A stretch of DNA of 64,000 nucleotides from Patescibacteria group bacterium (GTDB lineage Bacteria > Patescibacteriota > Microgenomatia > UBA1400 > PJMF01), in NCBI GenBank assembly GCA_049322655.1, contig JBMORP010000006.1:512410-576409 (forward strand), in the 5' to 3' direction. Under the pieces are notes generated by a model, which had not been told where the DNA came from, did not search any database, and saw only the letters and a program-made list of their open reading frames with translations. Both the position numbers and the translations under genes were made by a program. The first letter of the stretch is position 1; the number at the start of each line of letters is the position of its first letter. Below are positions 16,598 to 37,381 of this stretch, in pieces.

Positions 16598-16598
16598 A

Positions 16599-17658: not shown

Positions 17659-17679
17659 TTGTAAAATTTATCTCTTAGG

Positions 17680-17811: not shown

Positions 17812-17832
17812 ACGGGAAAAAAACTACTGATG

Positions 17833-21181: not shown

Positions 21182-22151
21182 GATTATTTTTTAATCTTTT
21201 TTCAATATCCAAAATTGTTTTCTTTAAACCATCTGCAAAAGAAATTTGTGGTTGCCAACCAATTTGTCTAATTTTAGAACTATCCAACATTCTTCTTTTT
21301 GATCCCTCTGGCTTACTTAAATCAAAATTAAAAGTTACTTTTTTATTCAAAGTAGATCTAATAAGTTCTACCATTTCTTTTATAGATTTTTCCTCCTGAG
21401 GATCAATATTATATGCTTCACCATTTTTGCCTTTATTTGCCAAAGTGATTAAACCATTAACAGCATCTTTAACATACAAAAAAGATCTTTTTTGTTCACC
21501 ACTACCAAAAACTTCAACTTGTTTTTTGGCAGAAAGAATTTTTCTAGTCATCATTGGAATAAAGTGACCCAAATCATCAAAATGATCATTTTCGCCATAA
21601 ACATTAACGAATCTAGCAATAGAGGTTTCTAAATTGCTGTTTTGAGCATACCAAATCGCTAAGTTTTCACCCATTTTTTTAGCCAAAGCATAGCCCAGTT
21701 TAGATTCTTCTGGACTACTAGTATCAGCCGACTCAGGGGTGGGCACCTTTTTTTCCATTGCCTCTTTGGTATACACACTGGCACTGCTTACTTGAATGAA
21801 TTTTTTTATTGACTTAGTTTTTCCAGCCACCCTAAGAGGAATTAACTGTAATAACATATTTTCTTCAAACATCAACTCAGTTCTACCTTTATCAAAATCA
21901 ACTCCCGTATTCAGGGCAGCTAAATTAAAAACCAAGTCATAACCTTCAAAAATCTTTAATAAACCAGTCTCACATCTCAAATCAACTTCATAAAAATTTA
22001 TTTGATCTAGTACATCAAGTAAGTTTTCCTTTTTACCCCTAGAAAGATTGTCTATTACTCCTACTTCCTTGCCCATCGCTAGTAATCTTCTAATTAAATG
22101 GAAACCAACAAAACCAGCACCTCCAGTTATCAATACTTTGTTGTATTTCAT
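21174..22151 (-). CDS. NAD-dependent epimerase/dehydratase (SDR family nucleotide-sugar modifying enzyme)
   Basis: VLITGGAGFVGFHL Rossmann motif, YxxxK context, 325 aa. Confidence 0.85.
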   Translation of the reverse strand: MKYNKVLITGGAGFVGFHLIRRLLAMGKEVGVIDNLSRGKKENLLDVLDQINFYEVDLRCETGLLKIFEGYDLVFNLAALNTGVDFDKGRTELMFEENMLLQLIPLRVAGKTKSIKKFIQVSSASVYTKEAMEKKVPTPESADTSSPEESKLGYALAKKMGENLAIWYAQNSNLETSIARFVNVYGENDHFDDLGHFIPMMTRKILSAKKQVEVFGSGEQKRSFLYVKDAVNGLITLANKGKNGEAYNIDPQEEKSIKEMVELIRSTLNKKVTFNFDLSKPEGSKRRMLDSSKIRQIGWQPQISFADGLKKTILDIEKRLKNNHD

Positions 22152-23293
22152 AAATTTTCCTTCAAAAATCTGATCAAGCTATTCAAAGAATAGAAATTTT
22201 TAATATTAGCGCTAGCCCCTTTAGATAAATTAAGTCTTTTTTTATTGTCTCTCAAAAGCTCATTTATTTTACTAGCAAAATCTTTGTTGGATGCAATTAC
22301 GACACCTTTTTTAGAAAAAAGTCCAGATGTTGCCTCTGGAAAAGCAATTACAGGCAAACCATACTGCAAATAATTCAAAACCTTTACTTTTACTCCAAAA
22401 TTAACAAAAATTGGAGCAATCGCTAAAGCTGACTTATGATAAATAGTAGTTAAATCATTAACAAAACCATGCTCAATCACATTTTTACTTGATTTAATTA
22501 GGGTTTTTAGTTCTGGAGAAGCTCCTCTGCCAATAATATGAAAATTGACTCGATTTTTATTAACTAACTTTGGCCAAATTTTCTTTAAAAACCAACTTAA
22601 ACCTCTAATATTTTCTTCCCAATCTAGAGTACCAGTAAAAACAATATCCTTGGATTTAACAGAAAAAACATTTGTTTTGCGGTCAACTAAAAAAGGTAAT
22701 TTTAGTTTTTTTGTTTTTTCAGCAAAATAGGAGTTAATATTTTTTTCATTAAGCAACCAAATTTGTCTAAAGTTTTGGAAAAAATACTTTTGGTAAATAG
22801 TTGCTTTTACAAACTCACTCAATAAAAAAAATTTAGTTAATATGTTTTTTTCACCACAGAAACGAGCCCAAAAGATCTGAGACATGTCTTCATCTTCTAA
22901 ATAAATAACTTGATTGCCAATCAAATATTGGGCATACTGAACCATCACATAGCCGTGAATAATAATATTATCGTAATTATTTTTTTCAATTTCTGTTTGA
23001 ATTTGATTTAAAAATTTTTGCTCAAAAAACTTAGTTACTAAAAAAGGCTTAAAACTGAATAAGAGCTTTAATTTCCCTAATGAAGAAAGAGTTTTATATT
23101 TCCAATTAACCGTTTTTAACTTAAATTGATTAGCAACATCATTGTCATAATTTTTTTCTTTGAAGGCAATAACTGTAAGATTTTTACTTAACTTAGCCAA
23201 ACCTTTTAATACTCCAGACGATATAAATGAATCACCAGAATCACCTAGTGGAACAAAAGGAGTAATAAATAAAGTTTTTTTATTTTTCACCAA
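22148..23293 (-). CDS. glycosyltransferase family 4 (GT-B)
   Basis: C-terminal nucleotide-sugar binding region (NYLQYGLPVIAFPE); architecture typical of GT1/GT4. Confidence 0.65.
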   Translation of the reverse strand: MVKNKKTLFITPFVPLGDSGDSFISSGVLKGLAKLSKNLTVIAFKEKNYDNDVANQFKLKTVNWKYKTLSSLGKLKLLFSFKPFLVTKFFEQKFLNQIQTEIEKNNYDNIIIHGYVMVQYAQYLIGNQVIYLEDEDMSQIFWARFCGEKNILTKFFLLSEFVKATIYQKYFFQNFRQIWLLNEKNINSYFAEKTKKLKLPFLVDRKTNVFSVKSKDIVFTGTLDWEENIRGLSWFLKKIWPKLVNKNRVNFHIIGRGASPELKTLIKSSKNVIEHGFVNDLTTIYHKSALAIAPIFVNFGVKVKVLNYLQYGLPVIAFPEATSGLFSKKGVVIASNKDFASKINELLRDNKKRLNLSKGASANIKNFYSLNSLIRFLKENL

Positions 23294-24407
23294 TGAAATA
23301 CTCTCTTATAGCAGTTTTTATTCTGTTAATTTCTGCTTCTGTTAATTCGGGGAATAAAGGTAAAGAAATTGTTTGTCGAGCAAATTCTTCTGCCACAGGA
23401 AAATCTCCTTTTTTATAACCTAAAAACTTCATTGAGGGCTGGAGATGAACCGGCGTAGGGTAATAAATACCAGTCGAAATTTGTTGATCATTCATAAATT
23501 TTTCAAATTTTTTTCTGTTTTTCATTTGCACAGAAAAAACATAAAAATTTGGTTTACTGGTCGGATAGCAAAACATTCCTTGATGACCAAATTCTCTAAA
23601 AACATGATTATATTCTTCAACTATTCGCCTTCTTTTTTTGATCCATTCAGGAAAAAACTCTAGTTTTTTAAGCAAAAATGCAGCCTGAATATTGTCAATT
23701 AGTTCATTCATACCAACCAAAGAATGTAGATATTTTTTACTTTTATCTTTAATTCCATGGTGAGCATATTGTTCTGCTTTTTTTATTAATTTGGCAGAGT
23801 TACTTGTTAACACCCCAGCATTGCCCAAAGAACCCAAAGACTTGGAAGGATAAAGAGAGAAACAACCAAAGTGACCAAAAGAACCAACTTTTTTACCATT
23901 TAGTTCACTGCCATGAGCGTGTGACGCATCTTCAAGTAAAAACAACCGGTGTTGATTAGCTATCTTTTTTAATCTAAACATATCAGCCGGAACTCCATAA
24001 AGATGAACTACTAGAATTGCTTTAGTATTTTTAGTTATTTTTTCTTCCACTGACCGAGGGTCTAGATTACCTGTTTTTGGATCAACATCTGCAAAAACTG
24101 GCTTGGCACCAGCTAAAATAATAGCGTCAACCGTAGCACTAAAAGTGGCAGGGGTCGTAATAACCTCATCATGACTAGTTAGACCAAGAGATTTTAAAGC
24201 TACCCACAAACTAGCTGTTCCAGACCTAATGCCCAAAGCAAACTTACTATCATGCATTTTGGCAAATAAATTCTGAAAATCTTCAGTTTCACGCCCATAA
24301 GTAAAAGCCGACTGATCAAGTAACTTTGAAAAAATCTGCTCAAAATCTTTTTTAAGAGCTAAATGTTGTCGAGATAAATCAAACAGGGGTATTTTTTTAG
24401 ATGACAT
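23280..24407 (-). CDS. DegT/DnrJ/EryC1/StrS family PLP-dependent sugar aminotransferase
   Basis: DASHAHGSELNGKKVGSFGHFGCFSLYPSKSLGSLGNAGVLTSN is the characteristic block with the PLP-Lys in the SKSLG context. Confidence 0.85.
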   Translation of the reverse strand: MSSKKIPLFDLSRQHLALKKDFEQIFSKLLDQSAFTYGRETEDFQNLFAKMHDSKFALGIRSGTASLWVALKSLGLTSHDEVITTPATFSATVDAIILAGAKPVFADVDPKTGNLDPRSVEEKITKNTKAILVVHLYGVPADMFRLKKIANQHRLFLLEDASHAHGSELNGKKVGSFGHFGCFSLYPSKSLGSLGNAGVLTSNSAKLIKKAEQYAHHGIKDKSKKYLHSLVGMNELIDNIQAAFLLKKLEFFPEWIKKRRRIVEEYNHVFREFGHQGMFCYPTSKPNFYVFSVQMKNRKKFEKFMNDQQISTGIYYPTPVHLQPSMKFLGYKKGDFPVAEEFARQTISLPLFPELTEAEINRIKTAIREYFIGEK

Positions 24408-25152
24408 AATAATATTTACCTTGTTTTTTTAAAAATTCTATATATTCATCAATCACTTCTTCTCCACCATCACCTCTGATAATACCTTTTTCCAACCAAA
24501 TAATCCGATTGCAATTTCTTCTAATATACTCAAGCCAATGGCTAACTAAAATAATTGTTTTTCCATGTTTAGAAAACTCATTAATTTTTTTCATTGATTT
24601 TTTACGAAACTTCTCATCACCAACAGCAATTTCTTCATCCAGAATCAAAACATCAGGGTTCGAGTGGATAGCAATTGCAAAACCCAATCGCAGTGACATT
24701 CCAGAAGAGTAAGTATAAAGTGGCGCATAAATAAACTCTCCAAGGCCGCTAAACTCTACAATTGACTCAAATTTTCGTTGGATTTCATCTTTATCCATAC
24801 CAATCACCAAACCATTCAAAAAAATATTTTCCTTACCAGTTAGTTCTGGATGAAAACCAGCTCCAAGTTCAATTAGTGAAACAACTTTACCATAAGTCTT
24901 TATTTTTCCCCCGCTTTGAGTAGTTATACCTGAAGCAATTTTTAATAAAGTTGTTTTACCTGAACCATTAGAGCCAATAACCCCAATTTTTTCTCCTTTA
25001 TAAATTTCAAGAGAGACATCTTTTAAAGCAAAAAACTTTTGTCGTTTTTCTATCCCAAAAATAGTGCCAAAAAAAGTTGGTTTTTGGTGGTGCAAAACAT
25101 ATTCTTTAGATATCTTATTGATCGTAATTGCTTTACTATTCTTTTTTCTCAT
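24397..25152 (-). CDS. ABC transporter ATP-binding protein, polysaccharide/teichoic-acid export type (Wzt/TagH-like)
   Basis: Walker A GSNGSGKTT, signature YSSGMSLRLGFA, Walker B ILILDE. Confidence 0.85.
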   Translation of the reverse strand: MRKKNSKAITINKISKEYVLHHQKPTFFGTIFGIEKRQKFFALKDVSLEIYKGEKIGVIGSNGSGKTTLLKIASGITTQSGGKIKTYGKVVSLIELGAGFHPELTGKENIFLNGLVIGMDKDEIQRKFESIVEFSGLGEFIYAPLYTYSSGMSLRLGFAIAIHSNPDVLILDEEIAVGDEKFRKKSMKKINEFSKHGKTIILVSHWLEYIRRNCNRIIWLEKGIIRGDGGEEVIDEYIEFLKKQGKYYYVI

Positions 25153-25156
25153 TTAA

Positions 25157-25924
25157 CTACATCCAATCATCAAAGTTTTTGCTTTCTTTTCTAAAAACAG
25201 TTAAAGCTAAAACAAAGATTACAAAACTAATTAACAAGTTAATGACCAGCTTAATAGAAACATCTTCAATTGGATAACCAGATAAAGAAAACCTAATAAC
25301 TTCAACAGTCAGTGACAATGGGTTCAAATAAATAATTGATCTTAAAAACTTTGGAATCATCTCTAGTGAATAAACAATGGGGGTAGCGTAAAACCAAAGA
25401 GATAACATTGCTTGAACAATAAAGTTAATATCCCGGTATTTAACATTTAAACTAGAAAATAAAAGTGAGATACCAATCGTAAAAAAAAGTAATAGAAATA
25501 AGCCTGGAATTAACCAAAAAATCTTCAAAGAAAAACTCAAAGTTAGTAATGAAAATAAAGCAAAACCTATCAACAAATGAAATAAATTAGAAAGAATAAC
25601 TGAAATCACCAAAGATTCTCTAGGAAAAATGGCTTTTTTAATTAAATATCTTTCATTAACAAAAATAGGAACTGCTTTAGAAAAACTTAATGAGAAAAAA
25701 TTCCAAGTTAACAATCCAGAAAACAAAAACACAAAATAATTATCAATCTCAAATTTAATAAAAAATTGAAAAACAAAACCAATCACTAACATTTGAAACA
25801 ATGGATTTAAAATCATCCACAAAAAACCAAAAGCAGCGTGCTTATATCTTGATTTTATTTCTCTCTCTGTCAGAGTGACCGTAAAATCAAACCAATGTTT
25901 CAATTTTTTGTTGCTCTTTAGCAT
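25157..25924 (-). CDS. ABC-2 type transporter permease (Wzm/TagG-like)
   Basis: 255 aa, 6 TM, adjacent to the Wzt-like ATPase. Confidence 0.8.
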   Translation of the reverse strand: MLKSNKKLKHWFDFTVTLTEREIKSRYKHAAFGFLWMILNPLFQMLVIGFVFQFFIKFEIDNYFVFLFSGLLTWNFFSLSFSKAVPIFVNERYLIKKAIFPRESLVISVILSNLFHLLIGFALFSLLTLSFSLKIFWLIPGLFLLLFFTIGISLLFSSLNVKYRDINFIVQAMLSLWFYATPIVYSLEMIPKFLRSIIYLNPLSLTVEVIRFSLSGYPIEDVSIKLVINLLISFVIFVLALTVFRKESKNFDDWM

Positions 25925-25925
25925 T

Positions 25926-26801
25926 TTAATTCAATAAATAATTAATTAATTTTAATTGGTTAATAGTTTTCGCCAAAGGTAGCTTTGTTTTTTTAGCAAA
26001 AAAATCACTAATTAATAATTCTAAAGGACTAGGTTTAGAAAAATTAAGCTTTTCTTCGATAAGTTTTTGGTTTTGTTGATAAAAAGTGACTTCATCAAAA
26101 CCATTTTTTTTGATCCAAGTAATTTTTCCTTCAATAAAATCAAAAATCATTTCCCTTTCAACTTGTTTGGCATACCAATCATAGTCAAATATAAATTTAG
26201 TTTTTTCAATAGAAAAAGAAAAAACAGACCGATTAACTAAAAACTCTTGTTTCTCTATTGAGTTATTTATATCATTTTTATTCAAAGTGGAACAATCTAA
26301 TAAATTTAAAAACTCAAGAATATATAAATCATGAGGAAGCAGGTCATGGATAATACTGATATTTTTTGGTTGGCTCAAGGAACTCCATCTTTTAGAAAAA
26401 ACTGATTTTAGTTTTGAGAGTTTATGTTGAACAATTAATTGTCTAACTTTTAATAAACTTTTGTCATATAAAAAAACCTGATCAACAGCTAGATATAAGT
26501 TTTTTGACTCGGCTAAGGCTTTTAGTTCTTTGGCCTGCTCCACCGTCAAGGCCAGCGGCTTCTCAACAAAAACATGTTTGTTAGCCAATAAACACTCTTT
26601 GGCTAAGGCAAAATGTGTCTCTTCTGGAGTAACAATAAAACAATAATTAACCTTTGGGTCATTTAAAACTGTTTTCTTTAGGGTGGTTTTTTTAGTTGAT
26701 AAATGTTTTTTTTCTATAATTTCAACCTCAACCCCCAATGATTTTAAAGTGGAATAAACCTTTTGTCCCCAATAACCAAAACCAAAAAGTGCTGCCTTCA
26801 T
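25926..26801 (-). CDS. Gfo/Idh/MocA family NAD(P)-dependent oxidoreductase
   Basis: N-terminal MKAALFGFGYWGQK Rossmann motif; EKPLALTVEQAKEL motif. Confidence 0.75.
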   Translation of the reverse strand: MKAALFGFGYWGQKVYSTLKSLGVEVEIIEKKHLSTKKTTLKKTVLNDPKVNYCFIVTPEETHFALAKECLLANKHVFVEKPLALTVEQAKELKALAESKNLYLAVDQVFLYDKSLLKVRQLIVQHKLSKLKSVFSKRWSSLSQPKNISIIHDLLPHDLYILEFLNLLDCSTLNKNDINNSIEKQEFLVNRSVFSFSIEKTKFIFDYDWYAKQVEREMIFDFIEGKITWIKKNGFDEVTFYQQNQKLIEEKLNFSKPSPLELLISDFFAKKTKLPLAKTINQLKLINYLLN

Positions 26802-27682
26802 AACATAAACTTACTAAGTTTATTAAACACTATTGATAAAAAAACGTGGAAGTAAATCGCTAACCTATCTAAAAACTGCAAGTTTTCTCTTTCCATAAAA
26901 CTATTCAAAAAATCAATTATTTTTAATCTAGAACTAGCAGTTAACTTACTTCTAAAATCTGCCCACCGTTGTTCATAAAGAGCATGAGATTTGGCTGAAA
27001 AAACTAATTTTTTGTAATACCACACAAGGTTGGTTGGATCTTTATGCTCAATATACATCTCAGCCGCATAATAGGCTTTACCACCAGCTTGTTGTAACTT
27101 CATACCCAGATCACTATCTTCACAAGCACCATTGAAATATTTAACAATTTCCTCACTAAAAAAGGTGTTTTCTTTCAAAAGAAATTTTTTATTATAAGCA
27201 ATGTTCTTATTATCCAAAATTTCCAAATCAACCACGCTATCATCCTTATTAATAGCTGATTTTTTCCAAAATTCATCAAAAATCAACGTTGTTAATGAAA
27301 AAATATTCTTTTTATAAAAAGTGTGGCTACAACCTAAAATAGCAGCTGCCTGGGGCTGAGATTTAATCGCTCTTTTAACTGAACTAAACCAATAATCTGA
27401 GGCTACACAATCATCGTCAATGAAAGCTACCCAATCATAGCTAGCCTCACGAATACCTCGGTTATAAACAAGCGGATAACCCTGAGTTTTTTCTAAAATA
27501 TATTTGACTGGAAAATTGGTATTTTTTATGAAGTTCTTGACTAACTGCTTGGTTTCATCATCAGAGTTATTATCAACTACAATTAACTCATCCAATTTTT
27601 GATCCTGAGTAGCCAAACTTCCCAGAACATGCTTTAATTCCTGAGATCTATTTCTTGTTACAATAATCGTTGAAACCTTCAT
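26798..27682 (-). CDS. glycosyltransferase family 2
   Basis: VSTIIVTRNR...IVVDNNSDDETKQ...FIDDDCV are GT2 motifs. Confidence 0.8.
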   Translation of the reverse strand: MKVSTIIVTRNRSQELKHVLGSLATQDQKLDELIVVDNNSDDETKQLVKNFIKNTNFPVKYILEKTQGYPLVYNRGIREASYDWVAFIDDDCVASDYWFSSVKRAIKSQPQAAAILGCSHTFYKKNIFSLTTLIFDEFWKKSAINKDDSVVDLEILDNKNIAYNKKFLLKENTFFSEEIVKYFNGACEDSDLGMKLQQAGGKAYYAAEMYIEHKDPTNLVWYYKKLVFSAKSHALYEQRWADFRSKLTASSRLKIIDFLNSFMERENLQFLDRLAIYFHVFLSIVFNKLSKFML

Positions 27683-27688: not shown

Positions 27689-28891
27689 GTGATTATAACA
27701 ACAGTCTTTATGAAAAACATTCTGTATCTTACTGAAAACTTAGATTTTTATGCTGACAGCGGGGCCAAAATTAAAACCATTAACACTTTACGCTGTTTAG
27801 ATAAAAATTTTAACATCAAAGTTTTAAGTCTCAACTCTACAAAACAACTCAATAAAAAATATCAAAAAAACTTCAAAAACCTTGATTTCATTTATCTTAC
27901 TGATCAAAAAATAGAAGTTCCAGTCAAAAAGAGACTGTTAGAAACACTTGCTAATTACTTATTGGGTAGACCATATTATTTTTTTCAATATAAAAATTTA
28001 AAATTTCAAAACTTAGTTAATGACACAATCAGAAGTTTAAAACCAGATTGTATTCATATTGACCACCTAACTATGGCTCAATATTTACCAAAAATAAAAA
28101 ATGAACAGTGGATCTACGAAGAACATAATATTGAGTATAAATTAAGACTACAAATGGCCAAATTCTCTAAAAAAATTGGTTATCATTGGTTAATCTGGCT
28201 GATAGAAAGCTTGTTTTTGTATTTTCAAGAAATAAAAATAATAAAAAAATTTGACTACATTTTTGCCATTTCCAAATCAGACCAACAATTTCTTACCAAA
28301 ATAACTAAAAAAAACAATGTTTATCTGCAAAATATTTTTATGCCTTACAAAAAAAGTAAGAAAAAAAACGAGACAATTAGTCGAACACTTCTGTTTGTTG
28401 GAGACCTTGAGTGGTTGCCAAATAGAAATGGAATAAGCTGGTTTATTAAAAAAATTCTACCCAAACTAGATAATGTCAAATTACAGATTGTTGGCAAAGT
28501 AGATCATGGTTTTAAACAACAGTATTCAAATGCAAAAATCAATTTTTTAGGGTATCAAAAAGAAATAAGTAATTTTTTTAACCAAGCTGATATTTTTATT
28601 GTCCCCTTAAAAATAGGTGAGGGAGTCAGACTAAAAATCCTTGATGCCTTTGCTAGACAAATACCAGTCATTTCCAGCAAAAATGCTATTAAAGGCTTGG
28701 CTATTAAACATAAACAAGAATTACTAATAGCAAAAAATCAATTTGAGTTTGTCTCCTTGATTAAAAAAGTTCTTGATAAAAAAATAGAAACCAATACTAT
28801 ACTAGAAAACGCATTAAGTTATTTAAAAGAAAACCACTCTGATGAAGAAAATAAAAAATTTATTAAAAGATACCAAGAAATACTTGGTTAA
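27689..28891 (+). CDS. glycosyltransferase family 4 (GT-B)
   Basis: LLFVGDLEWLPNRNGISWF and GEGVRLKILDAFARQIPVISS. Confidence 0.75.
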   Translation: MIITTVFMKNILYLTENLDFYADSGAKIKTINTLRCLDKNFNIKVLSLNSTKQLNKKYQKNFKNLDFIYLTDQKIEVPVKKRLLETLANYLLGRPYYFFQYKNLKFQNLVNDTIRSLKPDCIHIDHLTMAQYLPKIKNEQWIYEEHNIEYKLRLQMAKFSKKIGYHWLIWLIESLFLYFQEIKIIKKFDYIFAISKSDQQFLTKITKKNNVYLQNIFMPYKKSKKKNETISRTLLFVGDLEWLPNRNGISWFIKKILPKLDNVKLQIVGKVDHGFKQQYSNAKINFLGYQKEISNFFNQADIFIVPLKIGEGVRLKILDAFARQIPVISSKNAIKGLAIKHKQELLIAKNQFEFVSLIKKVLDKKIETNTILENALSYLKENHSDEENKKFIKRYQEILG

Positions 28892-30338
28892 TTTTAAAAA
28901 AAATAAAACAATTCTTACCCAAGTAGTTATTTTTTTTATATCCCTCTCTATTTCTCTTCCTTTGCTTATCAAACCAATGATTGCGGAGGGAGATGCTTAT
29001 GTGAGATCTTATCTTGCTTTTGAAGATTTCCAAGACCAAAGACTTTTCAAGTCTTATGGTGGGACATGGCTTCCATTTCATAAAATAATAATAGGTTTGC
29101 CACTTTATATTTATAATAATTACTTTTTAACCCCAAGATTAATTACTTTAATCATTAGTAGTTTAACAGTTTGTTTGATTTATATTCTGAGCATAGAACT
29201 TTTCAAAAATTATAAACAAAAGAAAATAATTGCTTTAATAACAGTTGGAATTTTTTTACTATTTCCACAAAGAATATTTTTATCAACCCAAACTCTCACT
29301 GAACCAGTTTTTACTTTTTTCTTTATTTTGGGAATTTATTTATTAATAAAGAATAAACTACTAACCAGTACAATTTTTTTAAATATCTCACATGGCATCA
29401 GATACGAGTCATGGTTTTTAACTCCAATAATATTTTATTACCTTTATATAAACAAAAAAATATCAATCAAACAAAAAGTTCTTTATGGAAGTTCACTACT
29501 TTTGTTCCCCACTTATTGGTTTCTTTTAAACTTAGTAAATAATGGTAGCGGTCTTGCTTTTTTTTCAGAAAAATATCAAATTGCTCAAAATGCTGGTTTT
29601 ATTCAAGAATATTGGAATTTCCCGCTATCATTTAATGTCTGGCTAAATAATTCTTTTGATTTAATTGGTTTAATTGGCTTAATTTCTTTAGTACAGGGAA
29701 TTATTTTTTATGCAAAAAATAAAAAAACAAATACTAGTGGGATTTTTTTCTTATCTACAAGTATTTATTTATTTAGTCTTTTAGTTTTGCAAGTTTTCAT
29801 GGGAACCATGGAGTGGTTTCCTCATAGATACTTATATATTCCACTCACTCTTTTTTTCCCATTTATAGCTTATGGTCTACTAATCACACTTAAAAAAATA
29901 AACAAAAAAAACTTAATAATCTTCTTAGCTTTACTACCAATTACTTTAATTGATATTTTTTATGTTTATCAACATACACATATTATTAGTGCTCCAGATA
30001 TGAAATATCCAATAGATAAAGAAAAAAAATTAAACGAAATTTTATATTTTTATAAAAAAATTTCTATGAATGAAAATGATATAACTTTATATATTTATAA
30101 AGAAGATGAAAATAGTTGGCTATACCCTCACTTTGTTTATTTCAACCAAGTAACTGAAGAAAGCATCCCATCTATAGAAATAGAAGATCTTAAAAATAAA
30201 GTTTATTTAAATGAGACAAAAAATTATTATTTTGTTTTTGAAAAACCAGCTTTTACCATTATAAAAAAAGATCAATTTGGTCAAGAGATATTTTCTAATT
30301 CTTCTTTTTCAATCACTAATCTAAAAAATGATAAATAA
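28842..30338 (+). CDS. GT-C fold membrane glycosyltransferase (ArnT/PMT-like, GT39/GT83-type), 498 aa
   Basis: About 11 TM helices, with an acidic first extracytoplasmic loop (EGDAYVRSYLAFEDFQD). A C-terminal soluble domain follows the last TM. Confidence 0.55.
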   Translation: MKKIKNLLKDTKKYLVNFKKNKTILTQVVIFFISLSISLPLLIKPMIAEGDAYVRSYLAFEDFQDQRLFKSYGGTWLPFHKIIIGLPLYIYNNYFLTPRLITLIISSLTVCLIYILSIELFKNYKQKKIIALITVGIFLLFPQRIFLSTQTLTEPVFTFFFILGIYLLIKNKLLTSTIFLNISHGIRYESWFLTPIIFYYLYINKKISIKQKVLYGSSLLLFPTYWFLLNLVNNGSGLAFFSEKYQIAQNAGFIQEYWNFPLSFNVWLNNSFDLIGLIGLISLVQGIIFYAKNKKTNTSGIFFLSTSIYLFSLLVLQVFMGTMEWFPHRYLYIPLTLFFPFIAYGLLITLKKINKKNLIIFLALLPITLIDIFYVYQHTHIISAPDMKYPIDKEKKLNEILYFYKKISMNENDITLYIYKEDENSWLYPHFVYFNQVTEESIPSIEIEDLKNKVYLNETKNYYFVFEKPAFTIIKKDQFGQEIFSNSSFSITNLKNDK

Positions 30339-30912
30339 AAAACTGATCAAAAAATTAACTGAAGAGATTCTAAAATTTAGAGAAGCTAGAAACTGGAAAC
30401 AATACCATTCTCCAAAAAACATGGCTATTTCTTTCTATATAGAAACAGCTGAATTGGCAGAATACTTTCAATATGGTTTTGATGAAGTTTTTGAACAAAC
30501 AAAAAAATATCAACAGAAAGTTGCTGACGAAATCATTGATGTTTTATGGTGGACTCTATTAATTGCTTATGAATATAGTATTGAACTAAATAAAAATAAG
30601 GCAACTAAATCAAAAAATATTTTTAAACCAAGAAATTCTTTAATGAGAATCTTTAACAGTATTGGGAAAATTAGTAACGAACTAATTAAATCACAAGATA
30701 TCATCAAAAAAAAATATAAAACTAAAAATCCAAAAATCCTTGAAAAAGAATTGCAAAATATTTTTAATCAAGTTGTAAGTTTTGCCAAATTTATTAACAT
30801 GGACATTGAAAAGGAATTTTATAGAAAGCTAGATAAAAATAAAAAAAGGTATCCAATCAAAAAAGCTTCTTTTTTAAAAGTTTTTAGTGTTAAACTATAT
30901 AAAAATATATGA
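30328..30912 (+). CDS. MazG-like all-alpha nucleoside triphosphate pyrophosphohydrolase domain protein
   Basis: ILKFREARNW.QYHSPKNMAISFYIETAELAEYFQ......QKVADEIIDVLWWTLLIAYE fits the MazG/dCTPase EExxE...E/D pattern. Confidence 0.65.
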   Translation: MINKKLIKKLTEEILKFREARNWKQYHSPKNMAISFYIETAELAEYFQYGFDEVFEQTKKYQQKVADEIIDVLWWTLLIAYEYSIELNKNKATKSKNIFKPRNSLMRIFNSIGKISNELIKSQDIIKKKYKTKNPKILEKELQNIFNQVVSFAKFINMDIEKEFYRKLDKNKKRYPIKKASFLKVFSVKLYKNI

Positions 30913-31895
30913 AAAAAGATAGTATCCTCCCACAAAATACTCCAACAAAAACACTCAAAGAAATTGCTAAAAATCCATTAGAAGATATTGAATATATAAA
31001 AAATATTGAAAAACAATTGAAAAAAAGACGTGGCTATTCATTTAAAATGCCAAAACCAAAGACTCCAGTTATTTTAATGTTTTCTGGGGGGTTGGATAGC
31101 ACTACCATTTGCGATATTTTACTTAGAAAATACCAGTTACAAGTTTATCCACTCCATCTTAGAAGGGGTCAAATTAGGATGCCAATCGAAGAAAAAGCGG
31201 TAGCTGATCTTTCAAAGCATTTTACCAAAGAGTTTCCTAAACTTTACCACCAGCCACAAATAGTTAATGCCTTTATTCCACCATTAGAGTTTAGGTTTGA
31301 TGTAACCGCTCATGCTGAAGTAAGAGCTAATAAAAAAAACAAGCAATGGCTGGGTATACCTATGTATACATCGATGGCAGCTGAATATGCTGTTAACTAC
31401 GCTATTTTTCTAGAAAAAACTAAAGGTATAAAAATTAGAGACATATTTTTTGGAATTATGAGCAAAGATGGTTTGGTGATGAAATATGAAACTCTCACTT
31501 TTTTGAGATCAATGACAAATCATATTTGTCAATTAATGGGTGACTATTCTTGGCAAGTATCATCGCTTCCAGTAGAAAAAGAGCTTGGTTATTACTTTGA
31601 TAAGGAACCATTAATTAAATGGTGCGCCAAATACAATGTCCCAATTCATAAATCATTCAGTTGCTTAGATCCTCACTACTATCACTGTGGCAGTTGTTAC
31701 TACTGTCAAAGAAGAAAAAATATCACTAAAGAAATTGGTGAAAAAGATAATACTTTTTACATAGATGAACAGCCATTTCAAAGGCTAGTTAGATTATTAG
31801 ACAAAATACTTTATGTTAAAGAATATACTAAATTTTTCATCAAAATTAATAAAACATTTTTGAAATATTTCATTAAATACTTCAATGGAAGATAA
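30909..31895 (+). CDS. QueC-like PP-loop ATP pyrophosphatase (328 aa); paralog of 17833-18771
   Basis: KRRGYSFKMPKPKTPVILMFSGGLDST aligns with KKRGYVFKEPKPGTPVVLLLSGGIDST of the paralog. C-terminal Cys cluster SFSCLDPHYYHCGSCYYCQRR. Confidence 0.75.
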   Translation: MKKDSILPQNTPTKTLKEIAKNPLEDIEYIKNIEKQLKKRRGYSFKMPKPKTPVILMFSGGLDSTTICDILLRKYQLQVYPLHLRRGQIRMPIEEKAVADLSKHFTKEFPKLYHQPQIVNAFIPPLEFRFDVTAHAEVRANKKNKQWLGIPMYTSMAAEYAVNYAIFLEKTKGIKIRDIFFGIMSKDGLVMKYETLTFLRSMTNHICQLMGDYSWQVSSLPVEKELGYYFDKEPLIKWCAKYNVPIHKSFSCLDPHYYHCGSCYYCQRRKNITKEIGEKDNTFYIDEQPFQRLVRLLDKILYVKEYTKFFIKINKTFLKYFIKYFNGR

Positions 31896-32712
31896 CATGC
31901 AAATCAATAAACTACAAAATATTTATAATAAAATTCAGTTGAATCTGGGTGTTAAAACCTTTTTTGAAAATAATTTTCAAAAAACTAAGTTATTTTTTGA
32001 CCAAAATTTAATTTTTCCCCTGTCTAAAAAAATAAATGATTATTTATTTGATCAAGTTATTGCTCATTACGGAGCAGACTATAAATGGGATGACCAAAAA
32101 AGCCAAAACATCAATAAAAAAACCAAAAATTATGGTTACGGTTTATTTCATTACTCAATGATTAAAAACCAAAAACCAAAAAGAGTTTTGATCGTTGGTT
32201 CAATGTTTGGTTTTATTCCATACATGATGGCTAAAGCTTGTGAAGAAAATGGTTTTGGTAAGGTTGATTTTGTTGATGCTAGTTTTGACTTGAAAGATGA
32301 AGATGATAAAAATACCCATTATTTTGGCCACGGTTTTTGGAACAAGAAAACAGCCAAAAAACATTTTTCTTACCTACTCAATCCAAGATATATTGATACT
32401 CATGTGATGACCACTGATGAATTTGCTAAGAAATATCCTCAAAACAACTATGACTATATTTGTTTGGATGGTGACCACTCTTATAAAGGAGCAAAACTAG
32501 ATTTAAAATTATTTTGGTCCAAACTCAACAAAGAAGGCTTCATTTCTTTTCATGATATTCACCTAAAAAAAGAGTTTTTAAAAAAAGAAGCCAGAGAAAT
32601 GGATTTGGAATTGGGATATAGGAAAATTTGGCAAGAATTGATAAAAACTAAGAAATACAAATTTGAATTATCCAATCACTATTCAGGATTAGGATTTTTA
32701 CAGAAATTATAG
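31885..32712 (+). CDS. class I SAM-dependent methyltransferase-like protein (CmcI/TylF-like fold); paralog of 37378-38076
   Basis: VLIVGSMFGFIP...VDFVDA...YDYICLDGDHSYKGAKLDLKLFWSKLNKEGFISFHDI matches the D-G/S-DH-S/T and FHD motifs of the CmcI/TylF O-methyltransferase-like families. Confidence 0.55.
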   Translation: MEDNMQINKLQNIYNKIQLNLGVKTFFENNFQKTKLFFDQNLIFPLSKKINDYLFDQVIAHYGADYKWDDQKSQNINKKTKNYGYGLFHYSMIKNQKPKRVLIVGSMFGFIPYMMAKACEENGFGKVDFVDASFDLKDEDDKNTHYFGHGFWNKKTAKKHFSYLLNPRYIDTHVMTTDEFAKKYPQNNYDYICLDGDHSYKGAKLDLKLFWSKLNKEGFISFHDIHLKKEFLKKEAREMDLELGYRKIWQELIKTKKYKFELSNHYSGLGFLQKL

Positions 32713-32714
32713 AT

Positions 32715-33971
32715 ATGTTTGGAATAAAAAGTTACTTTTCAAAAAAAATTAACTTAAGATTCAAAAAAATTGTTAGTGAAACTCAACTTTCAAAAAAAAG
32801 TTTATCATTTATTGATAAAAAAATAACTGAAATTGCTATTTTTAGAAAACTAACAAATGAAAACTGGGATAAACAAATTCAATCACCAGTATCTTCCTAT
32901 ACTAACCCTGAATCTAGAAAAATAGTCAAAGTTATTAGTAAATTTAATCCAAATAACCTAGGAAACTGGTCAGAAGAAAAAAGTTTTCATCTGTCTGGAT
33001 TATTGGAAAAAAAAATAATTGATTATTTAGTTAAACTTCTAAAAGCAAAGAACAAAGAAATGGGTGGATATTTAACTAGTGGCGGAACTGAGGCAAATAT
33101 TTTTGCTATGTGGTTGGGTCGAAATTCACTTCAAAAATCAATTAAAACCAATCAAATCATAGTTTTAAAAACTAGTCTCACCCATTATTCAATTGAAAAA
33201 GCTACTGATTTAGTTGGATTGAATTATACAGATATCTCAATTGATTCCAAATTTTGGGGAATGAGCCTAAAAAATTTAGAAGAGACAATCAAAAAAGAAT
33301 ATAAAAAAGGCAAAAAAGGATTCTTAATTCCATTAACACTAGGTTACACCATTACTGGATCGGATGATCCAATCAAAGAAATCAATAATCTAATCAATAA
33401 ATTAAAAAATCAATATAAAGAAATAAAGTTTTTTTGTTGGATTGATGCGGCATTTTCTGGAATAGTAAAACCATTTTTAGAAGAAAACTTCACTCCATTT
33501 TCCTATAACAATATTCAGGCTTTCCTCACTGACTTTCATAAAGTTATGGCTGTTCCTTATCAATCAGGAATAATCATCTATAGAAAAAATCTAATAAAAA
33601 ATATAGAAAATGAAGTTACTTATATTGGTAGAAAAGATACAACTTTGCTTGGTTCAAGATCAGGAAGTTCAGCTATTATCACTTGGTTTACCCTTATCTC
33701 CTTAGGACAAGATAAAATCATAAAAATAATTGAACAAGCTATAAAAGAAAAAAATATTTTTATTAAACAAATTCAAAAAAAAATACCAAATATAAAAATA
33801 ATTAATCAAAAAAGTAATATCCAAATTGGTTTAGTTGCAAATAGCAAAAATCAAAAAAATATTTTAAATAAAATGAACTTAGAAGAAACAAAACAGAAAA
33901 TTTTGCTTAATGGGAAAAATAAAAAAATCTCTATTTATAAAATATATTTTTTGCCATTTTTTAAAAACTAA
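32715..33971 (+). CDS. group II pyridoxal-phosphate-dependent decarboxylase (MfnA/GadB/HDC-like fold)
   Basis: LTSGGTEANIFAM (TSGGTEAN motif) and DFHKVMAVPYQSG (D-x-HK PLP-lysine motif). Confidence 0.7.
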   Translation: MFGIKSYFSKKINLRFKKIVSETQLSKKSLSFIDKKITEIAIFRKLTNENWDKQIQSPVSSYTNPESRKIVKVISKFNPNNLGNWSEEKSFHLSGLLEKKIIDYLVKLLKAKNKEMGGYLTSGGTEANIFAMWLGRNSLQKSIKTNQIIVLKTSLTHYSIEKATDLVGLNYTDISIDSKFWGMSLKNLEETIKKEYKKGKKGFLIPLTLGYTITGSDDPIKEINNLINKLKNQYKEIKFFCWIDAAFSGIVKPFLEENFTPFSYNNIQAFLTDFHKVMAVPYQSGIIIYRKNLIKNIENEVTYIGRKDTTLLGSRSGSSAIITWFTLISLGQDKIIKIIEQAIKEKNIFIKQIQKKIPNIKIINQKSNIQIGLVANSKNQKNILNKMNLEETKQKILLNGKNKKISIYKIYFLPFFKN

Positions 33972-34825
33972 ATTTCTTTGAAATCAATTATTTTAGCTTG
34001 ATCTCCTCCTATAGAAAAAGAGTTTAAATATACTTTAATGTCACTACCAATTCCAAGTTTAGTACCATCCAATAAATAATAATTATCAGCATTTTTATAA
34101 GCTTTTAATCTTAAATTAATTGTTAAATCTCTATAATCTGGATCAATAACCTTAATATTTTCTCCCCTAATATCAGAAAACTCATAATTAGAATGAATTT
34201 CACTGGTAAAATCCATTACTTCAGCTAAAATCCTGCCTTGTTCATCACTCATGATCATCCCCTTTTCTAATTTTGCAGCCACATCTAAATCAACCCACTT
34301 TACTTTAACCAAAACAGCCAAATCAACTTGGTCTGAAATCAATTTATCACCAATAAAAGAAATTACTCCATCGACATTGTTTTTCCCAAAAGTCAAATTT
34401 AAACTTCTGCCTACTTCAATAGGCTCAGAATTAAAAAGATACAGGCCTCTTTTGTTATCAAAATATGAACGTACATCCAAAACCACAAAAATAGTACTTC
34501 TACCCTCTCCATCTTCAAATGTTTGCTTATCAACAACTTCAGCAATTGTTTCGCCAAAAGTGTTTTTAGCCACATCACCAATAGCTAAATCATTAATTAA
34601 CCAATAACTAGTTTGTTTTTCAGTTTGCCACCACCATTCTTCATTAGAGATAAAAAGGCCAACTCGCACCCATTCTTCTTTTTTGATTAATTTTGAAATA
34701 ATAAGACTTGAAAATATAGCAAAAACAATCAAAATAATTAAAAAATCTAACCTTTTTAATTTTTTTGAAAAAGAAACAACACTAGTGAAAAATTTTTTAC
34801 TAAACATATCAAAACAATCCTTCAT
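33968..34825 (-). CDS. N-terminal TM-anchored secreted protein with an EWWW motif (DUF4330-like); paralog of 15743-16597
   Basis: See the entry for 15743-16597. Confidence 0.55.
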   Translation of the reverse strand: MKDCFDMFSKKFFTSVVSFSKKLKRLDFLIILIVFAIFSSLIISKLIKKEEWVRVGLFISNEEWWWQTEKQTSYWLINDLAIGDVAKNTFGETIAEVVDKQTFEDGEGRSTIFVVLDVRSYFDNKRGLYLFNSEPIEVGRSLNLTFGKNNVDGVISFIGDKLISDQVDLAVLVKVKWVDLDVAAKLEKGMIMSDEQGRILAEVMDFTSEIHSNYEFSDIRGENIKVIDPDYRDLTINLRLKAYKNADNYYLLDGTKLGIGSDIKVYLNSFSIGGDQAKIIDFKEI

Positions 34826-36260
34826 CGCAGATTATATCGGAAAAGGGATAAGTTTCACCTACAATTTATTTCCTTACTTTTTTATAACTCTAACTTTTCT
34901 GTTAAGTTTACTATTTGTCAGCTCAAATTTAACTCTATTAATAACAAGTATTATTTTTTCTTTTGTTCTCTACCAAAAAACCAAGAATTTAGAACTAACC
35001 ATTTTTTTAGGACTAATAACTACACTACCATTTGCTAAAGGTAAAACTTTTGAACTCATTTTGTTAGAAAACAATCAGGTTTCAACAAATTCATTATTTG
35101 ATATAGACTATTCTTTCCCAATCTACCTAAGTGATATTTTTTTGTTCGCGCTAATTTGGGTTTTAATTCGTAATAAAAATATAGTAAATAAAATAAAAAA
35201 CTTTAATATTTCAACAAGCCAAACCTGGTTTGTAGTTTTTATATTGATAACCATAGTATCAGGGTTTTTTTCTAAATTTCCGATTGTTTCTTTACTATCA
35301 TCAGCACAAATACTCAGATTACTTTTATTAATGGTTATTCCTTTAATTATAAATTCAAAAATAAAAATAAAAACAATAATAGAAACTACTGTAGCCTCGG
35401 TTTTATTTCAGACTCTGTTAATCTTTCTACAAAAAATAAACAATGGAACTCTAGGAATATACATAGAATCATTTATGCTTAAAGAAGAATTTGGCATCAG
35501 ATCAAATGAAAACATTGATATTCTTAGATTAACTGGCTCATTTTTTGAACCAAGTATTTTGGGTACTTTTCTTTTGATAAACTTCTCTTTGCTATTAAAT
35601 AGCCTCAAAAAGTTAAAAAATAATAAAATTAAAAAATTAGTTTTATTAGCATTATTAGGTTGTTTCATAGGAATTATTCTTACTGCTAGTAGAGGAATTT
35701 ATTTACTTTTCTTTGCTTATATCATTTATGAAATAATATTGGTAGTCAAAAATAGGAATTTAAAATTAAAAACAATAAACAAGAACTTATTATTGGCAAT
35801 AATAATCATAGTTGCTGTTTTTTTACCATATTTTTCCAATAGAATCTTTGATTTTTCAAAAATATTTTCTAAACTAGGAAGTGGTACTTACAGATTACAG
35901 TTAGCTGAAGAGTCTTTTTTATTAGCTAAAAATAATCTCTTAGGAGTTGGAATTAATCTTTCTCCTTATAATTTTGCAATACAAAAATTTTCAAAAGAAA
36001 TAATTTTTGATCCAGCTCATCCTCATAATATATTTTTTCAAATTTTAGCTGAAACAGGCTTTATTGGTTTAACAATATTTAGCTTTTTTATATTTTATAC
36101 AATCAAAGAAATTCCACAATTAAACAAAAATTTGTTTTTTTACCCAATAATTTTGTTTTTAATAGCCGCACAGTTTTACCCAATTTTTATTAATCAATCA
36201 GAAATTACTAGTTATTTGTTTTTATTCATAGGACTAAGTAAAAAATATAGCAAATCATGA
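34683..36260 (+). CDS. O-antigen ligase/Wzy-like polytopic membrane protein (525 aa); start uncertain (the ORF overlaps the divergent upstream gene by 143 nt)
   Basis: Multi-TM; DPAHPHNIFFQILAETGFIGLTIFSFFIF matches the Wzy_C-type signature. Confidence 0.6.
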   Translation: MINFEIIRLENIAKTIKIIKKSNLFNFFEKETTLVKNFLLNISKQSFIADYIGKGISFTYNLFPYFFITLTFLLSLLFVSSNLTLLITSIIFSFVLYQKTKNLELTIFLGLITTLPFAKGKTFELILLENNQVSTNSLFDIDYSFPIYLSDIFLFALIWVLIRNKNIVNKIKNFNISTSQTWFVVFILITIVSGFFSKFPIVSLLSSAQILRLLLLMVIPLIINSKIKIKTIIETTVASVLFQTLLIFLQKINNGTLGIYIESFMLKEEFGIRSNENIDILRLTGSFFEPSILGTFLLINFSLLLNSLKKLKNNKIKKLVLLALLGCFIGIILTASRGIYLLFFAYIIYEIILVVKNRNLKLKTINKNLLLAIIIIVAVFLPYFSNRIFDFSKIFSKLGSGTYRLQLAEESFLLAKNNLLGVGINLSPYNFAIQKFSKEIIFDPAHPHNIFFQILAETGFIGLTIFSFFIFYTIKEIPQLNKNLFFYPIILFLIAAQFYPIFINQSEITSYLFLFIGLSKKYSKS

Positions 36261-37381
36261 AAAAACTTTTTATTATTCCTTTTGAACTTCCCTGGGATTG
36301 GACAGCTGACTATCAGCGACAGACTATTTTTGAGCTAAACAAAAATAATAACAAAGTTTTGGCTTACATGAATAAAGATAGTTATTTATTTTTAAAAGTA
36401 AAACAAAAAAAAAACTATCCCAATATAAAAAATACTGATTTTTATCAACCACGAAATTTGCTGCCTTTTCAACGTTTTGAGCTTGTTCAATCTCTGAATC
36501 AGCTAATTAACCTGATAATAATCAGGTTAAAAAACCTTAACAAAAAGATTTATCTTTGGTCTTTTGATCCAGATTTTTATTTGTTGAATTACTTAGCAAG
36601 GTTTTTGGGGATAATCACTATTTACGATTGTGTTGATTATCACAGCCATAACAATCAAACAATTAACCAACAAATAAGAACTAAAGAAGATAAAATCATT
36701 AAAAATTCTAAATATTTCTTTGTTAACTCAAGAGAACTAGCTAAAATTCATAGCAAAAAAAGAAAACCAACTGCAATTGTCCCACAAGGTTTTGATTTAA
36801 CTACTTTTGAAACAAAATTAAAAAAACTAGCTTTTTTTAATAAAATTAAAAAACCTATTATTGGTTATGTTGGAGGTATAAACTATCGACTCGATTATGA
36901 TTTGTTAATTAAGTTAGCCAAAAACAATCCTAATTGGCAATTTGTTTTTTGGGGACCAATACAAAAACAAGATGACGATCAACAAAATCAAGTAGAAGAG
37001 AAACAAAGAACTCTTTTTTCACTAGCAAATGTTTCTGTTAGTCAAAGTGAACGTAAAAATATCCCCGCCGTAATTAATCACTTTGATGTTTGTCTAATTC
37101 CCTACAAAACTAATTATCTATTTAACAAACATTGTTACCCAATGAAAATTTTTGAGTATTTTTACCTAAAAAAACCAATCATTTCGGCTCCAATTAATGA
37201 GTTAAAAAGATTTCCTGAAAAACTAATTTCAATTGCTAAAGACTACTCATCTTGGCAAAAAAAAATTGAAGAAAAAATAGAAAAAAAAGAATTAGACACA
37301 GTTAAAAAAACTAAGCAAAGGCTAGCTTTTGAAAATTCTTGGAAAAATAAAATTTCTAATATTTTAGAAAAAATTAATTAA
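36257..37381 (+). CDS. glycosyltransferase, GT-B fold (family 1/4-like); paralog of 9351-10457
   Basis: Whole-length similarity to the 9351-10457 product; C-terminal CYPMKIFEYFYLKKPIIS. Confidence 0.55.
   Translation: MKKLFIIPFELPWDWTADYQRQTIFELNKNNNKVLAYMNKDSYLFLKVKQKKNYPNIKNTDFYQPRNLLPFQRFELVQSLNQLINLIIIRLKNLNKKIYLWSFDPDFYLLNYLARFLGIITIYDCVDYHSHNNQTINQQIRTKEDKIIKNSKYFFVNSRELAKIHSKKRKPTAIVPQGFDLTTFETKLKKLAFFNKIKKPIIGYVGGINYRLDYDLLIKLAKNNPNWQFVFWGPIQKQDDDQQNQVEEKQRTLFSLANVSVSQSERKNIPAVINHFDVCLIPYKTNYLFNKHCYPMKIFEYFYLKKPIISAPINELKRFPEKLISIAKDYSSWQKKIEEKIEKKELDTVKKTKQRLAFENSWKNKISNILEKIN

Follow-up and report, generated by a model that had tools for sequence, protein, structure and literature searches.

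A divergent GT-C-fold membrane glycosyltransferase in a glycan locus of a Patescibacteria genome

Bacteria of the Patescibacteria group are very small and for the most part uncultured; they live attached to other cells, and almost nothing is known of their surface chemistry. A stretch of 64,000 nucleotides (nt) from one such genome (assembly GCA_049322655.1, contig JBMORP010000006.1, positions 512,410 to 576,409), here called the window, carries a glycan locus of roughly 33 kb, at about 5-38 kb, followed by four genes for surface proteins rich in Ser, Thr and Pro. One gene of the locus (28842-30338) encodes a membrane protein that the initial annotation described as a GT-C glycosyltransferase of the PMT/ArnT type and connected with O-glycosylation of these surface proteins. 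The question raised by the locus is therefore the target of this enzyme: the glycan made by the surrounding genes or the proteins encoded behind them? With moderate confidence, we regard it as an extracytoplasmic PMT_2/ArnT-like glycosyltransferase that assembles or decorates the envelope glycopolymer(s) of the surrounding locus.

Fold, family and putative active site

The ATG start of the 498-amino-acid (aa) protein is backed by its N-terminus MKKIKNLLK, which is kept in homologues at 43-62% identity. The same protein (100% identity) has been deposited as a hypothetical protein in a metagenome-assembled genome (MAG) of a Patescibacteria group bacterium. Direct scans of Pfam and NCBIfam gave zero matches, and sequence and profile searches against the PDB sequences found nothing significant (hmmsearch did not return ArnT). 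The AlphaFold2 model, built on 14 homologues, has a predicted local distance difference test value (pLDDT) of 84.6 and a predicted template modelling score (pTM) of 0.85, and comprises about 11 transmembrane (TM) helices, with an alpha/beta domain of some 110 residues at the C-terminus. When the model was compared with the PDB using Foldseek, the top 26 matches were nearly all GT-C enzymes, the exceptions being glycosylphosphatidylinositol-transamidase entries at ranks 19-20, and 12 of the 26 had E <= 1e-3. The query template modelling scores (TMq) were 0.57-0.59 for ArnT (at 10-12% identity), 0.52-0.60 for ALG9, 0.49-0.56 for yeast and human STT3, 0.50 for PglB, 0.42-0.43 for AftA and 0.29-0.42 for Pmt1/2/4; ALG3 and PimE were likewise among the matches. 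On the strength of the model we are confident that the protein adopts the GT-C fold of the GT-C_A class. It is the sole GT-C protein of the window.

An exhaustive profile search delineated a large family, with 8,586 cluster representatives at E <= 1e-3, 1,642 at E <= 1e-10 and 260 at E <= 1e-30. The Pfam domain PMT_2 (PF13231), to which the query itself has no match, was matched by 59 of 97 wider relatives at E <= 0.01, among them P0015 (34.5 bits, cut-off 26.1). The family profile also aligned with the N-terminal core (TM1-TM7) of E. coli ArnT over 198 columns, with an hhalign probability of 86% and E = 4.9e-6. The protein is thus a divergent member of the PMT_2/ArnT-like superfamily, and its description as PMT/ArnT-like is correct only at the superfamily level. 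PMT_2 is the domain of most characterised Gram-positive GT-C enzymes acting on cell-wall polymers (PMC8035078), and the family name therefore implies no protein acceptor.

The features specific to PMT proper (GT39) were absent. No PF02366 (Pfam PMT) match at threshold was found in the query, and matches were weak in three of the 14 homologues and in 21 of the 97 wider relatives; PMT_4TMC was matched by none of the 111 family members scanned. In the mycobacterial enzyme MtPMT, the fourth external loop (EL4) forms a WW-like beta-hairpin of about 45 residues that binds proline-rich acceptors, its eukaryotic counterpart being the MIR domains (PMC12331936). The EL4 of our model, from the helix end at 234 to the helix start at 260, has about 25 residues with one short helix (239-250); the hairpin is absent, and the model has no beta-strand before residue 413. 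A role in N-glycosylation of the STT3/PglB/AglB oligosaccharyltransferase type was also considered and rejected, because the WWDYG motif is absent (there is no WWD in the translation) and the external C-terminal domain is small. Pfam STT3 was matched by one of the 97 relatives.

Among 139 relatives with 15-62% identity, R187 and W191 are invariant, and D51, R55, W76, P78, P142, E189, P223, R329 and P340 are conserved in at least 90%; D51 is also invariant in the 14 homologues. This residue lies in the sequence AEGDAY after TM1 (22-38) and begins helix 50-64 of the model, a position which we take to be the site of the catalytic acid in all GT-C_A enzymes. The strongly basic N-terminus and the helix order in the model together would place D51, E154, R187 and R329 in external loops, together with R55, W76, P78, P142, E189, W191 and the GTMEW motif (321-325), all of them conserved. 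The spacing of D51 and E154, 103 residues, resembles that of D74 and D176 in MtPMT (PMC12331936).

The glycan locus and its relatives

The GT-C gene stands second in a compact operon that runs on the plus strand and at its end converges on a DUF4330 gene (Table 1). The 3' end of the first gene, a GT4 glycosyltransferase (GT4e), overlaps the GT-C start by 50 nt, so that GT-C is translationally coupled to it, and GT4e homologues are found near GT-C in seven other loci (L002, L005, L006, L009, L019, L020, L025). The reading frames of the four genes downstream of GT-C (30328-33971) overlap or abut, and their order is repeated in L002, L003 and L014. Their products, a MazG-like protein, a QueC-like PP-loop ATPase, a methyltransferase and a pyridoxal phosphate (PLP)-dependent decarboxylase, are probably cytoplasmic sugar-tailoring enzymes. 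Speculatively, an amine derived by decarboxylation might be linked by an ATP-dependent amide bond to a uronic acid of the glycan.

Transcribed divergently from this operon is a minus-strand unit (23280-27682) for a soluble GT2, a GFO_IDH-type sugar dehydrogenase, a Wzm-like permease, a TagH-like ATPase and a DegT-type aminotransferase. The initial annotation had listed a priming phosphoglycosyl transferase, a flippase and four Wzy_C proteins in the locus, and all of these are present, the flippase as a weak Wzx-like match; the Wzy_C domain was detected in all four proteins with E = 1e-11 to 2e-20. Several GT4 and GT2 enzymes are also encoded in the upstream glycan part (4947-22151). The window is AT-rich, with 27-30% GC across the glycan locus, where A8 and T8 runs abound over the whole length. 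Both DUF4330 proteins have a single N-terminal TM helix and their genes adjoin Wzy_C, WecG or methyltransferase genes; the trio of DUF4330, Wzy_C and Methyltransf_24 is found again in L011, L018 and L025, and the DUF4330 proteins may be co-polymerases or chain-length factors.

Table 1. Features of the window and proteins of the GDE family in other loci (positions within the window or, where given, within the named locus).
Feature	Position	Strand	Basis or remark
Priming phosphoglycosyl transferase (Bac_transf)	4947-5591	+	
Wzy_C protein	5574-8048	-	
Wzx-like protein	8105-9403	+	weak match, E = 1.6e-4
GT2 protein	10454-11362		
Wzy_C protein	12446-13807	-	
PIG-L deacetylase	13836-14579	+	
DUF4330 protein	15743-16597	-	
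WecG/TagA homologue	16599-17351	-	
QueC-like protein, second copy	17833-18771	-	Pfam/NCBIfam
SipW-like (SipW/archaeal-type) signal peptidase I	18765-19184	-	conserved in L002
Wzy_C protein	19181-21181	-	
Epimerase/dehydratase	21174-22151	-	
DegT-type sugar aminotransferase	23280-24407	-	Pfam
TagH-like ABC ATPase	24397-25152	-	NCBIfam TagH 8.4e-62
Wzm-like ABC-2 permease	25157-25924	-	NCBIfam Wzm 1.4e-23
GFO_IDH-type sugar 3-dehydrogenase	25926-26801	-	UDP-GlcNAc 3-dehydrogenase 1.8e-16
Soluble GT2	26798-27682	-	Pfam
GT4 glycosyltransferase (GT4e), first operon gene	27689-28891	+	Pfam Glyco_trans_1_4, 3.3e-21
GT-C-fold membrane glycosyltransferase	28842-30338	+	498 aa, ATG start; putative catalytic Asp51 codon at 28992-28994
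MazG-like protein	30328-30912	+	Pfam/NCBIfam
QueC-like PP-loop ATPase	30909-31895	+	Pfam/NCBIfam
Methyltransf_24 protein	31885-32712	+	Pfam/NCBIfam
PLP-dependent group II decarboxylase (histidine/tyrosine-decarboxylase-like)	32715-33971	+	Pfam/NCBIfam
DUF4330 protein	33968-34825	-	
Wzy_C protein, 525 aa	34683-36260	+	Pfam
GT4	36257-37381	+	
Methyltransf_24 protein	37378-38076	-	
S/T/P-rich, Cys-rich surface protein 1	38196-38966	+	[SN]QDLRQQA start 38421; predicted sortase-type signal 38874-38966
S/T/P-rich, Cys-rich surface protein 2	39086-40069	+	[SN]QDLRQQA start 39263
S/T/P-rich, Cys-rich surface protein 3	40071-40829	+	predicted sortase-type signal 40737-40829
S/T/P-rich, Cys-rich surface protein 4	41013-41984	+	[SN]QDLRQQA start 41079; predicted sortase-type signal 41892-41984
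HlyD/YknX-like adaptor, MacB-type ABC ATPase and permease	42139-45169	+	Pfam, NCBIfam
GT2 protein	56442-57350		
GDE family, L001	16041-17567		
GDE family, L005	11427-12863		
GDE family, L009	11366-12808, 14956-16317		
GDE family, L013	545-1834		
GDE family, L014	6798-8285		
GDE family, L015	2228-3487		
GDE family, L018	15121-16599		
GDE family, L028	11460-12920, 14101-15525		

The comparison was extended to 14 distinct homologous loci with flanking sequence (27-45% identity, nearly all from Patescibacteria/Paceibacterota MAGs), the ORFs of which were compared with the window proteins. In 12 of the 14, homologues of the window glycan genes lie within 10 kb of GT-C, the recurrent neighbours being the epimerase, GT4, two GT2 copies, WecG, a large Wzy_C protein and the priming transferase. 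In five loci (L005, L006, L009, L018, L028) DegT lies immediately upstream and either runs up to the start of GT-C or overlaps it; GFO_IDH in turn directly precedes DegT. The remaining loci have NodU-type carbamoyltransferases, membrane-anchored SGNH/GDSL enzymes (SGNH esterases) and an Alg14/Alg13-like split glycosyltransferase, all of them carbohydrate-acting. Surface proteins with the LPxTGPEDW signal were found near GT-C only in L002/L003, the fully syntenic closest relative, and are missing in 13 of the 14 loci. Because the neighbours of GT-C are genes of sugar-polymer synthesis, the enzyme most likely serves to build or decorate a glycan of the cell envelope. The proposal that it O-glycosylates the surface proteins found no specific link in this comparison, the neighbours being glycan-assembly genes and the surface proteins being confined to the closest relative; such an activity is possible, although none of the tests made here supports it.

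Several other observations were made on the homologous loci. GT-C homologues are split by frameshifts at A7-A8 or T8-T9 runs in L006 (~10726-10781), L009 (~10435-10491) and L028 (~10419-10441), which come either from errors in MAG sequencing or from slipped-strand phase variation, and L020 has a degenerate tandem second GT-C copy (11546-13026). L004 (CP011212.1, 'candidate division TM6 bacterium GW2011_GWF2_28_16') and L001 (DNBD01000001.1, a 'Candidatus Pacebacteria' MAG) have the same ORF set, with identical BLAST identities and E-values for nearly every ORF, and two 'Pseudomonadales' records (L006, L009) and a 'Methanoperedens' record (L010) bear loci of the Patescibacteria type. The taxonomic labels of the public records L004, L006, L009 and L010 look unreliable.

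The route that we envisage is as follows. Synthesis of the glycan would start on polyprenyl phosphate, with the Bac_transf enzyme and TagA/WecG responsible for priming. In the cytoplasm, the GT4 and GT2 enzymes, the amino-sugar pair of GFO_IDH and DegT and the tailoring enzymes of the operon would then build and modify the glycan, which would be exported via the TagH/Wzm-type ABC transporter and/or the Wzx-like protein. At the outer face of the membrane, GT-C would move sugar from a polyprenyl-phosphate-linked donor onto the glycan, either as a single sugar or as an oligosaccharide en bloc, and thereby extend, branch or join the glycopolymer. Asp51, in the first external loop (EL1), would act as the catalytic base, and E154, R187 and R329 could help to bind the donor phosphate. 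The analysis itself shows the fold, the acidic and basic residues conserved in predicted external loops, the operon structure and the recurrent glycan-gene neighbourhood, and from these the lipid-linked donor, the glycan acceptor and the choice between one-sugar and block transfer are inferred.

Some findings weigh against this reading. No polyprenyl-phosphate sugar synthase of the GtrB/CsbB/DPM1/ArnC type was found in the window when its three GT2 proteins were compared with PDB and NCBIfam. Their best matches are soluble elongating GT2s (chondroitin synthase, SpsA, TarS, rhamnosyltransferase), and the matches to DPMS reached only 2-4e-4. No GtrA-type flippase was found in the window either, and its sole flippase candidate, the weak Wzx-like protein, is encoded 19 kb from GT-C. 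We infer the acceptor from gene context alone, and the glycan itself could still end on protein; a glycan island of variable content always precedes the surface-protein cluster.

The gene context also bears on a third kind of acceptor. GT-C could work as ArnT does, with a membrane lipid or a lipid-anchored glycolipid, instead of a polymer or protein, receiving the sugar, possibly an amino sugar made by GFO_IDH and DegT. In the Foldseek comparison ArnT scored with the best and is built in the same way, the hhalign alignment with the E. coli enzyme points in the same direction, and DegT, an ArnB-family aminotransferase, is tightly coupled to GT-C in the five loci mentioned above. Set against this, DegT is the only arn-type partner found in the window: ArnC-like and ArnA-like (formyltransferase) genes were not detected, small ArnE/F-like genes are not found nearby, and the neighbouring GT2 (26798-27682) is not ArnC-like, with a pairwise E of 0.014 to E. 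coli ArnC. The surrounding genes form a polymer pathway. Patescibacteria are not known to make lipid A and are generally described as lacking lipopolysaccharide (LPS). We hold a lipid acceptor to be very improbable.

Surface proteins and the question of a protein acceptor

The composition of the four proteins bears out their description as S/T/P-rich: the fraction of Ser, Thr and Pro is 0.29-0.37, vs 0.139 +/- 0.03 in the other 58 ORFs of the window. Long Pro-Thr (PT), (T/P)n and poly-Ser tracts are present, and small Cys-rich modules are spaced by PT linkers. The first of the genes starts 7.86 kb past the GT-C stop codon, in agreement with the distance of about 8 kb given initially, and the genes are separate units behind the fourth Wzy_C gene, a GT4 gene and an oppositely oriented methyltransferase gene. 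Each protein has an N-terminal TM segment, and three of the four end with LP[QK]SGPEDWLxYLQ[IV]GLGALGxGxLLLLFL, in which homologues have LPQTG, LPETG, LPKTG or LPVTG at the signal position. Judged from sequence, the three proteins thus bear a sortase signal of the LPXTG type, not mentioned in the initial annotation, the tail of which is unusually well conserved and lacks the basic end. No sortase gene was found in the window. Right after the N-terminal TM helix, three of the four proteins have the motif [SN]QDLRQQA (it was not found in 40071-40829), of which positions Q61, D62, R64, Q65, Q66 and A67 are invariant in 14 homologues (alignment A5) and which may be a processing or recognition site. 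In the AlphaFold2 model of the 327-aa surface protein, the PT linker is disordered and the last 120 residues fold into an Ig-like beta-sandwich, for which the PDB gave just generic Ig-like/FN3-like fold matches (E > 0.01).

Another family of large S/T-rich surface proteins is encoded near GT-C in L006 (3087-4838), L009 (1452-3089) and L011 (19890-21044). Besides FN3/Big-like domains, they possess a TM helix at the N-terminus and the signal '[VL]P[VL]SGSVGTT + TM' at the C-terminus, and their genes adjoin pilus-assembly-like genes. A preprint on pili of the Candidate Phyla Radiation (CPR) (10.64898/2026.03.03.709456) proved unrelated, glycosylation and LPXTG being unmentioned in it.

The surroundings of the surface-protein cluster were compared in the window and four additional genomes (L013-L016), where clusters comprise two to four surface genes. 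The most conserved neighbour is the HlyD/YknX and MacB module, which lies directly 3' of the cluster in all five genomes with the downstream region visible; the link is either functional or simply core-genome synteny. On the other side, the island of L014 is similar to that of the window, whereas those of L013 and L015 differ, with an ABC-2 exporter, radical-SAM and other genes and no GT-C of the present family within 10 kb. In L016, DegT and a Wzy_C protein are encoded directly upstream of the cluster.

A second family of unannotated polytopic proteins of 420-510 aa, recognised by an N-terminal 'GDE ... HPxxYY' signature and here named the GDE family, occurs in Patescibacteria glycan loci, often convergent with GT-C. 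Beside the surface clusters such proteins are encoded in L013 and L015 (419-429 aa) and in L014 (495 aa). There is no Pfam match on record for the family. A profile of ten GDE proteins matched the GT-C family profile with an hhalign probability of 97.9% (E = 4.8e-13), and they are therefore regarded as GT-C paralogues; single GDE proteins (L014 495 aa, L001 508 aa) gave only 10-23%. Counting these, a GT-C superfamily gene lies within 10 kb in each of the five surface-protein loci for which 9 kb or more of upstream sequence is available, and surface proteins without any GT-C, which would have spoken against the glycosylation proposal, were not encountered there. Because the GDE profile matches in L013-L015, some GT-C always accompanies the island, but it is exchanged together with the island. 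The swap for unrelated paralogues in L013, L014 and L015 fits a glycan-specific enzyme and not a conserved protein-directed one. The adjacency of island and cluster keeps the idea of glycoproteins alive, and a hypervariable surface region that occupies one fixed site in the chromosome would account for it just as well.

Could GT-C nevertheless be a PMT-like protein O-glycosyltransferase, moving sugar from a polyprenyl-phosphate donor to Ser and Thr of the PT and poly-Ser linkers as the surface proteins emerge? The fold and the constellation of catalytic Asp, second acid and Arg are common to PMTs (PMC12331936), the weak Pfam PMT matches among the 97 relatives point the same way, the long disordered PT and Ser tracts would be suitable targets, and a GT-C gene is near all five surface-protein loci. 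This is opposed by the missing PMT_4TMC, PF02366 and EL4 hairpin of the query, by the TMq values, which are lower for Pmt (0.29-0.42) than for ArnT and ALG9 (0.57-0.60), by the lack of surface proteins in 13 of the 14 homologous loci and by the different subfamilies to which the GT-C proteins beside the clusters of L013, L014 and L015 belong. Moreover, GT-C is co-transcribed with cytoplasmic sugar-tailoring enzymes and not with the surface proteins. Taken together, direct O-glycosylation by GT-C appears unlikely.

The second route to a glycoprotein, also raised in the initial annotation, assigns the transfer to a Wzy_C protein acting as an O-oligosaccharyltransferase (PglL/PilO-like, or like WsaB/WsfB of Gram-positive S-layer glycosylation), which would put the glycan en bloc on the surface proteins while GT-C only decorates it. 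Glycan clusters for the S-layers of Geobacillus and Paenibacillus contain a priming transferase, an ABC-2 exporter and Wzy_C. The window has the same parts list, and four Wzy_C proteins occur in a group that is not known to make lipid A. The 525-aa Wzy_C protein is encoded 1.9 kb upstream of the surface genes and matches the NCBIfam models PEP_O_lig_1 ('putative O-glycosylation ligase'; 1.2e-13) and TfpM (1.1e-3), and in L016 Wzy_C and DegT directly precede the cluster. The NCBIfam scores are, however, far under the cut-offs (50.7 vs 188 bits for PEP_O_lig_1 and 18 vs 600 bits for TfpM), no Wzy_C is encoded within 10 kb upstream of the cluster in L013 and L015, and the pair of large Wzy_C protein and priming transferase is kept in loci without surface proteins, which fits polymerase or ligase roles. 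PglL_A (PF15864; PMC3643930) was unmatched by all four Wzy_C proteins at E <= 0.001-0.01, a weak test in CPR as the model is Gram-negative-derived. We give this route a slim chance.

More broadly, the variable glycan island and the LPXTG-anchored, PT/Ser-rich proteins might together form a Patescibacteria protein O-glycosylation system, in which the GT-C or a Wzy_C protein of the island attaches glycan or sugar to the linkers outside the membrane before anchoring by sortase; this broader proposal we hold to be doubtful. If true, the CPR would thereby gain its first described system of protein glycosylation. Were the glycan to end on the neighbouring sortase-anchored proteins, these would be surface glycoproteins that may mediate host attachment, an idea that the present evidence does not support.

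Comparison with known GT-C systems

GT-C enzymes are already known from cell-wall glycan loci. The novelty lies only in the divergent, unannotated GT-C subfamily, together with the second, paralogous family, as standard components of Patescibacteria glycan loci. Recognising the subfamily and the GDE family improves the annotation of Patescibacteria genomes, and the subfamily suggests that envelope glycans of the CPR are routinely modified outside the cytoplasm.

With the bacterial Pmt enzymes (GT39; M. tuberculosis Rv1002c, S. coelicolor Pmt) the protein shares the GT-C fold, the putative catalytic Asp in EL1, a second acidic residue about 100 residues on, a conserved Arg in a late external loop and the presence of candidate Pro/Thr-rich acceptors encoded nearby. 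Unlike Pmt, it is embedded in a glycan locus and lacks the domains and the hairpin discussed above, and the Pmt structures match it more weakly than those of ArnT, ALG9 or STT3. The similarity to ArnT (GT83) comprises the overall architecture, a TM core with a small C-terminal external domain, the remote profile homology over TM1-TM7 and the conserved neighbour of the DegT/ArnB family; the differences are the low sequence identity and the lack of arnA, arnC, arnD, arnE and arnF equivalents at the locus.

In Lactococcus lactis, WpsH and WpsJ have been proposed to polymerise and ligate an undecaprenyl-phosphate-linked oligosaccharide onto rhamnan (PMC10821137). The window resembles this dual-chain system in combining an ABC-exported chain with Wzx-type components (PMC10821137), and by analogy lipid-linked oligosaccharides could be joined or polymerised by GT-C on the outside of the membrane, the likeness being one of locus content. 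It differs in having four Wzy_C proteins available for polymerase or ligase roles, and no WpsA/WpsB-like initiator was identified.

Finally, GacL (S. pyogenes), GtsC (B. anthracis), GtlB/GttB (Listeria), CsdD/CsdF (L. lactis) and YkcB (B. subtilis) are GT-C enzymes with the PMT_2 domain, and where the function has been established, the target is a wall polysaccharide or a teichoic acid, with some of the enzymes working downstream of ABC-type export (PMC8035078). Unlike in the corresponding systems (GtrABC, CsbB-GtcA-YfhO, GacIJKL), the window has no GT-A polyprenyl-phosphate sugar synthase or GtrA flippase, the query stays below every Pfam threshold, and it is co-transcribed with GT4, MazG-like, QueC-like, methyltransferase and decarboxylase genes. 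Common to them and to the protein described here are the GT-C fold, the PMT_2-type relatives, a predicted external active site, an envelope of the monoderm type and a position in or near a secondary cell-wall polymer locus with a TagA-type linkage enzyme and an ABC-2 exporter.

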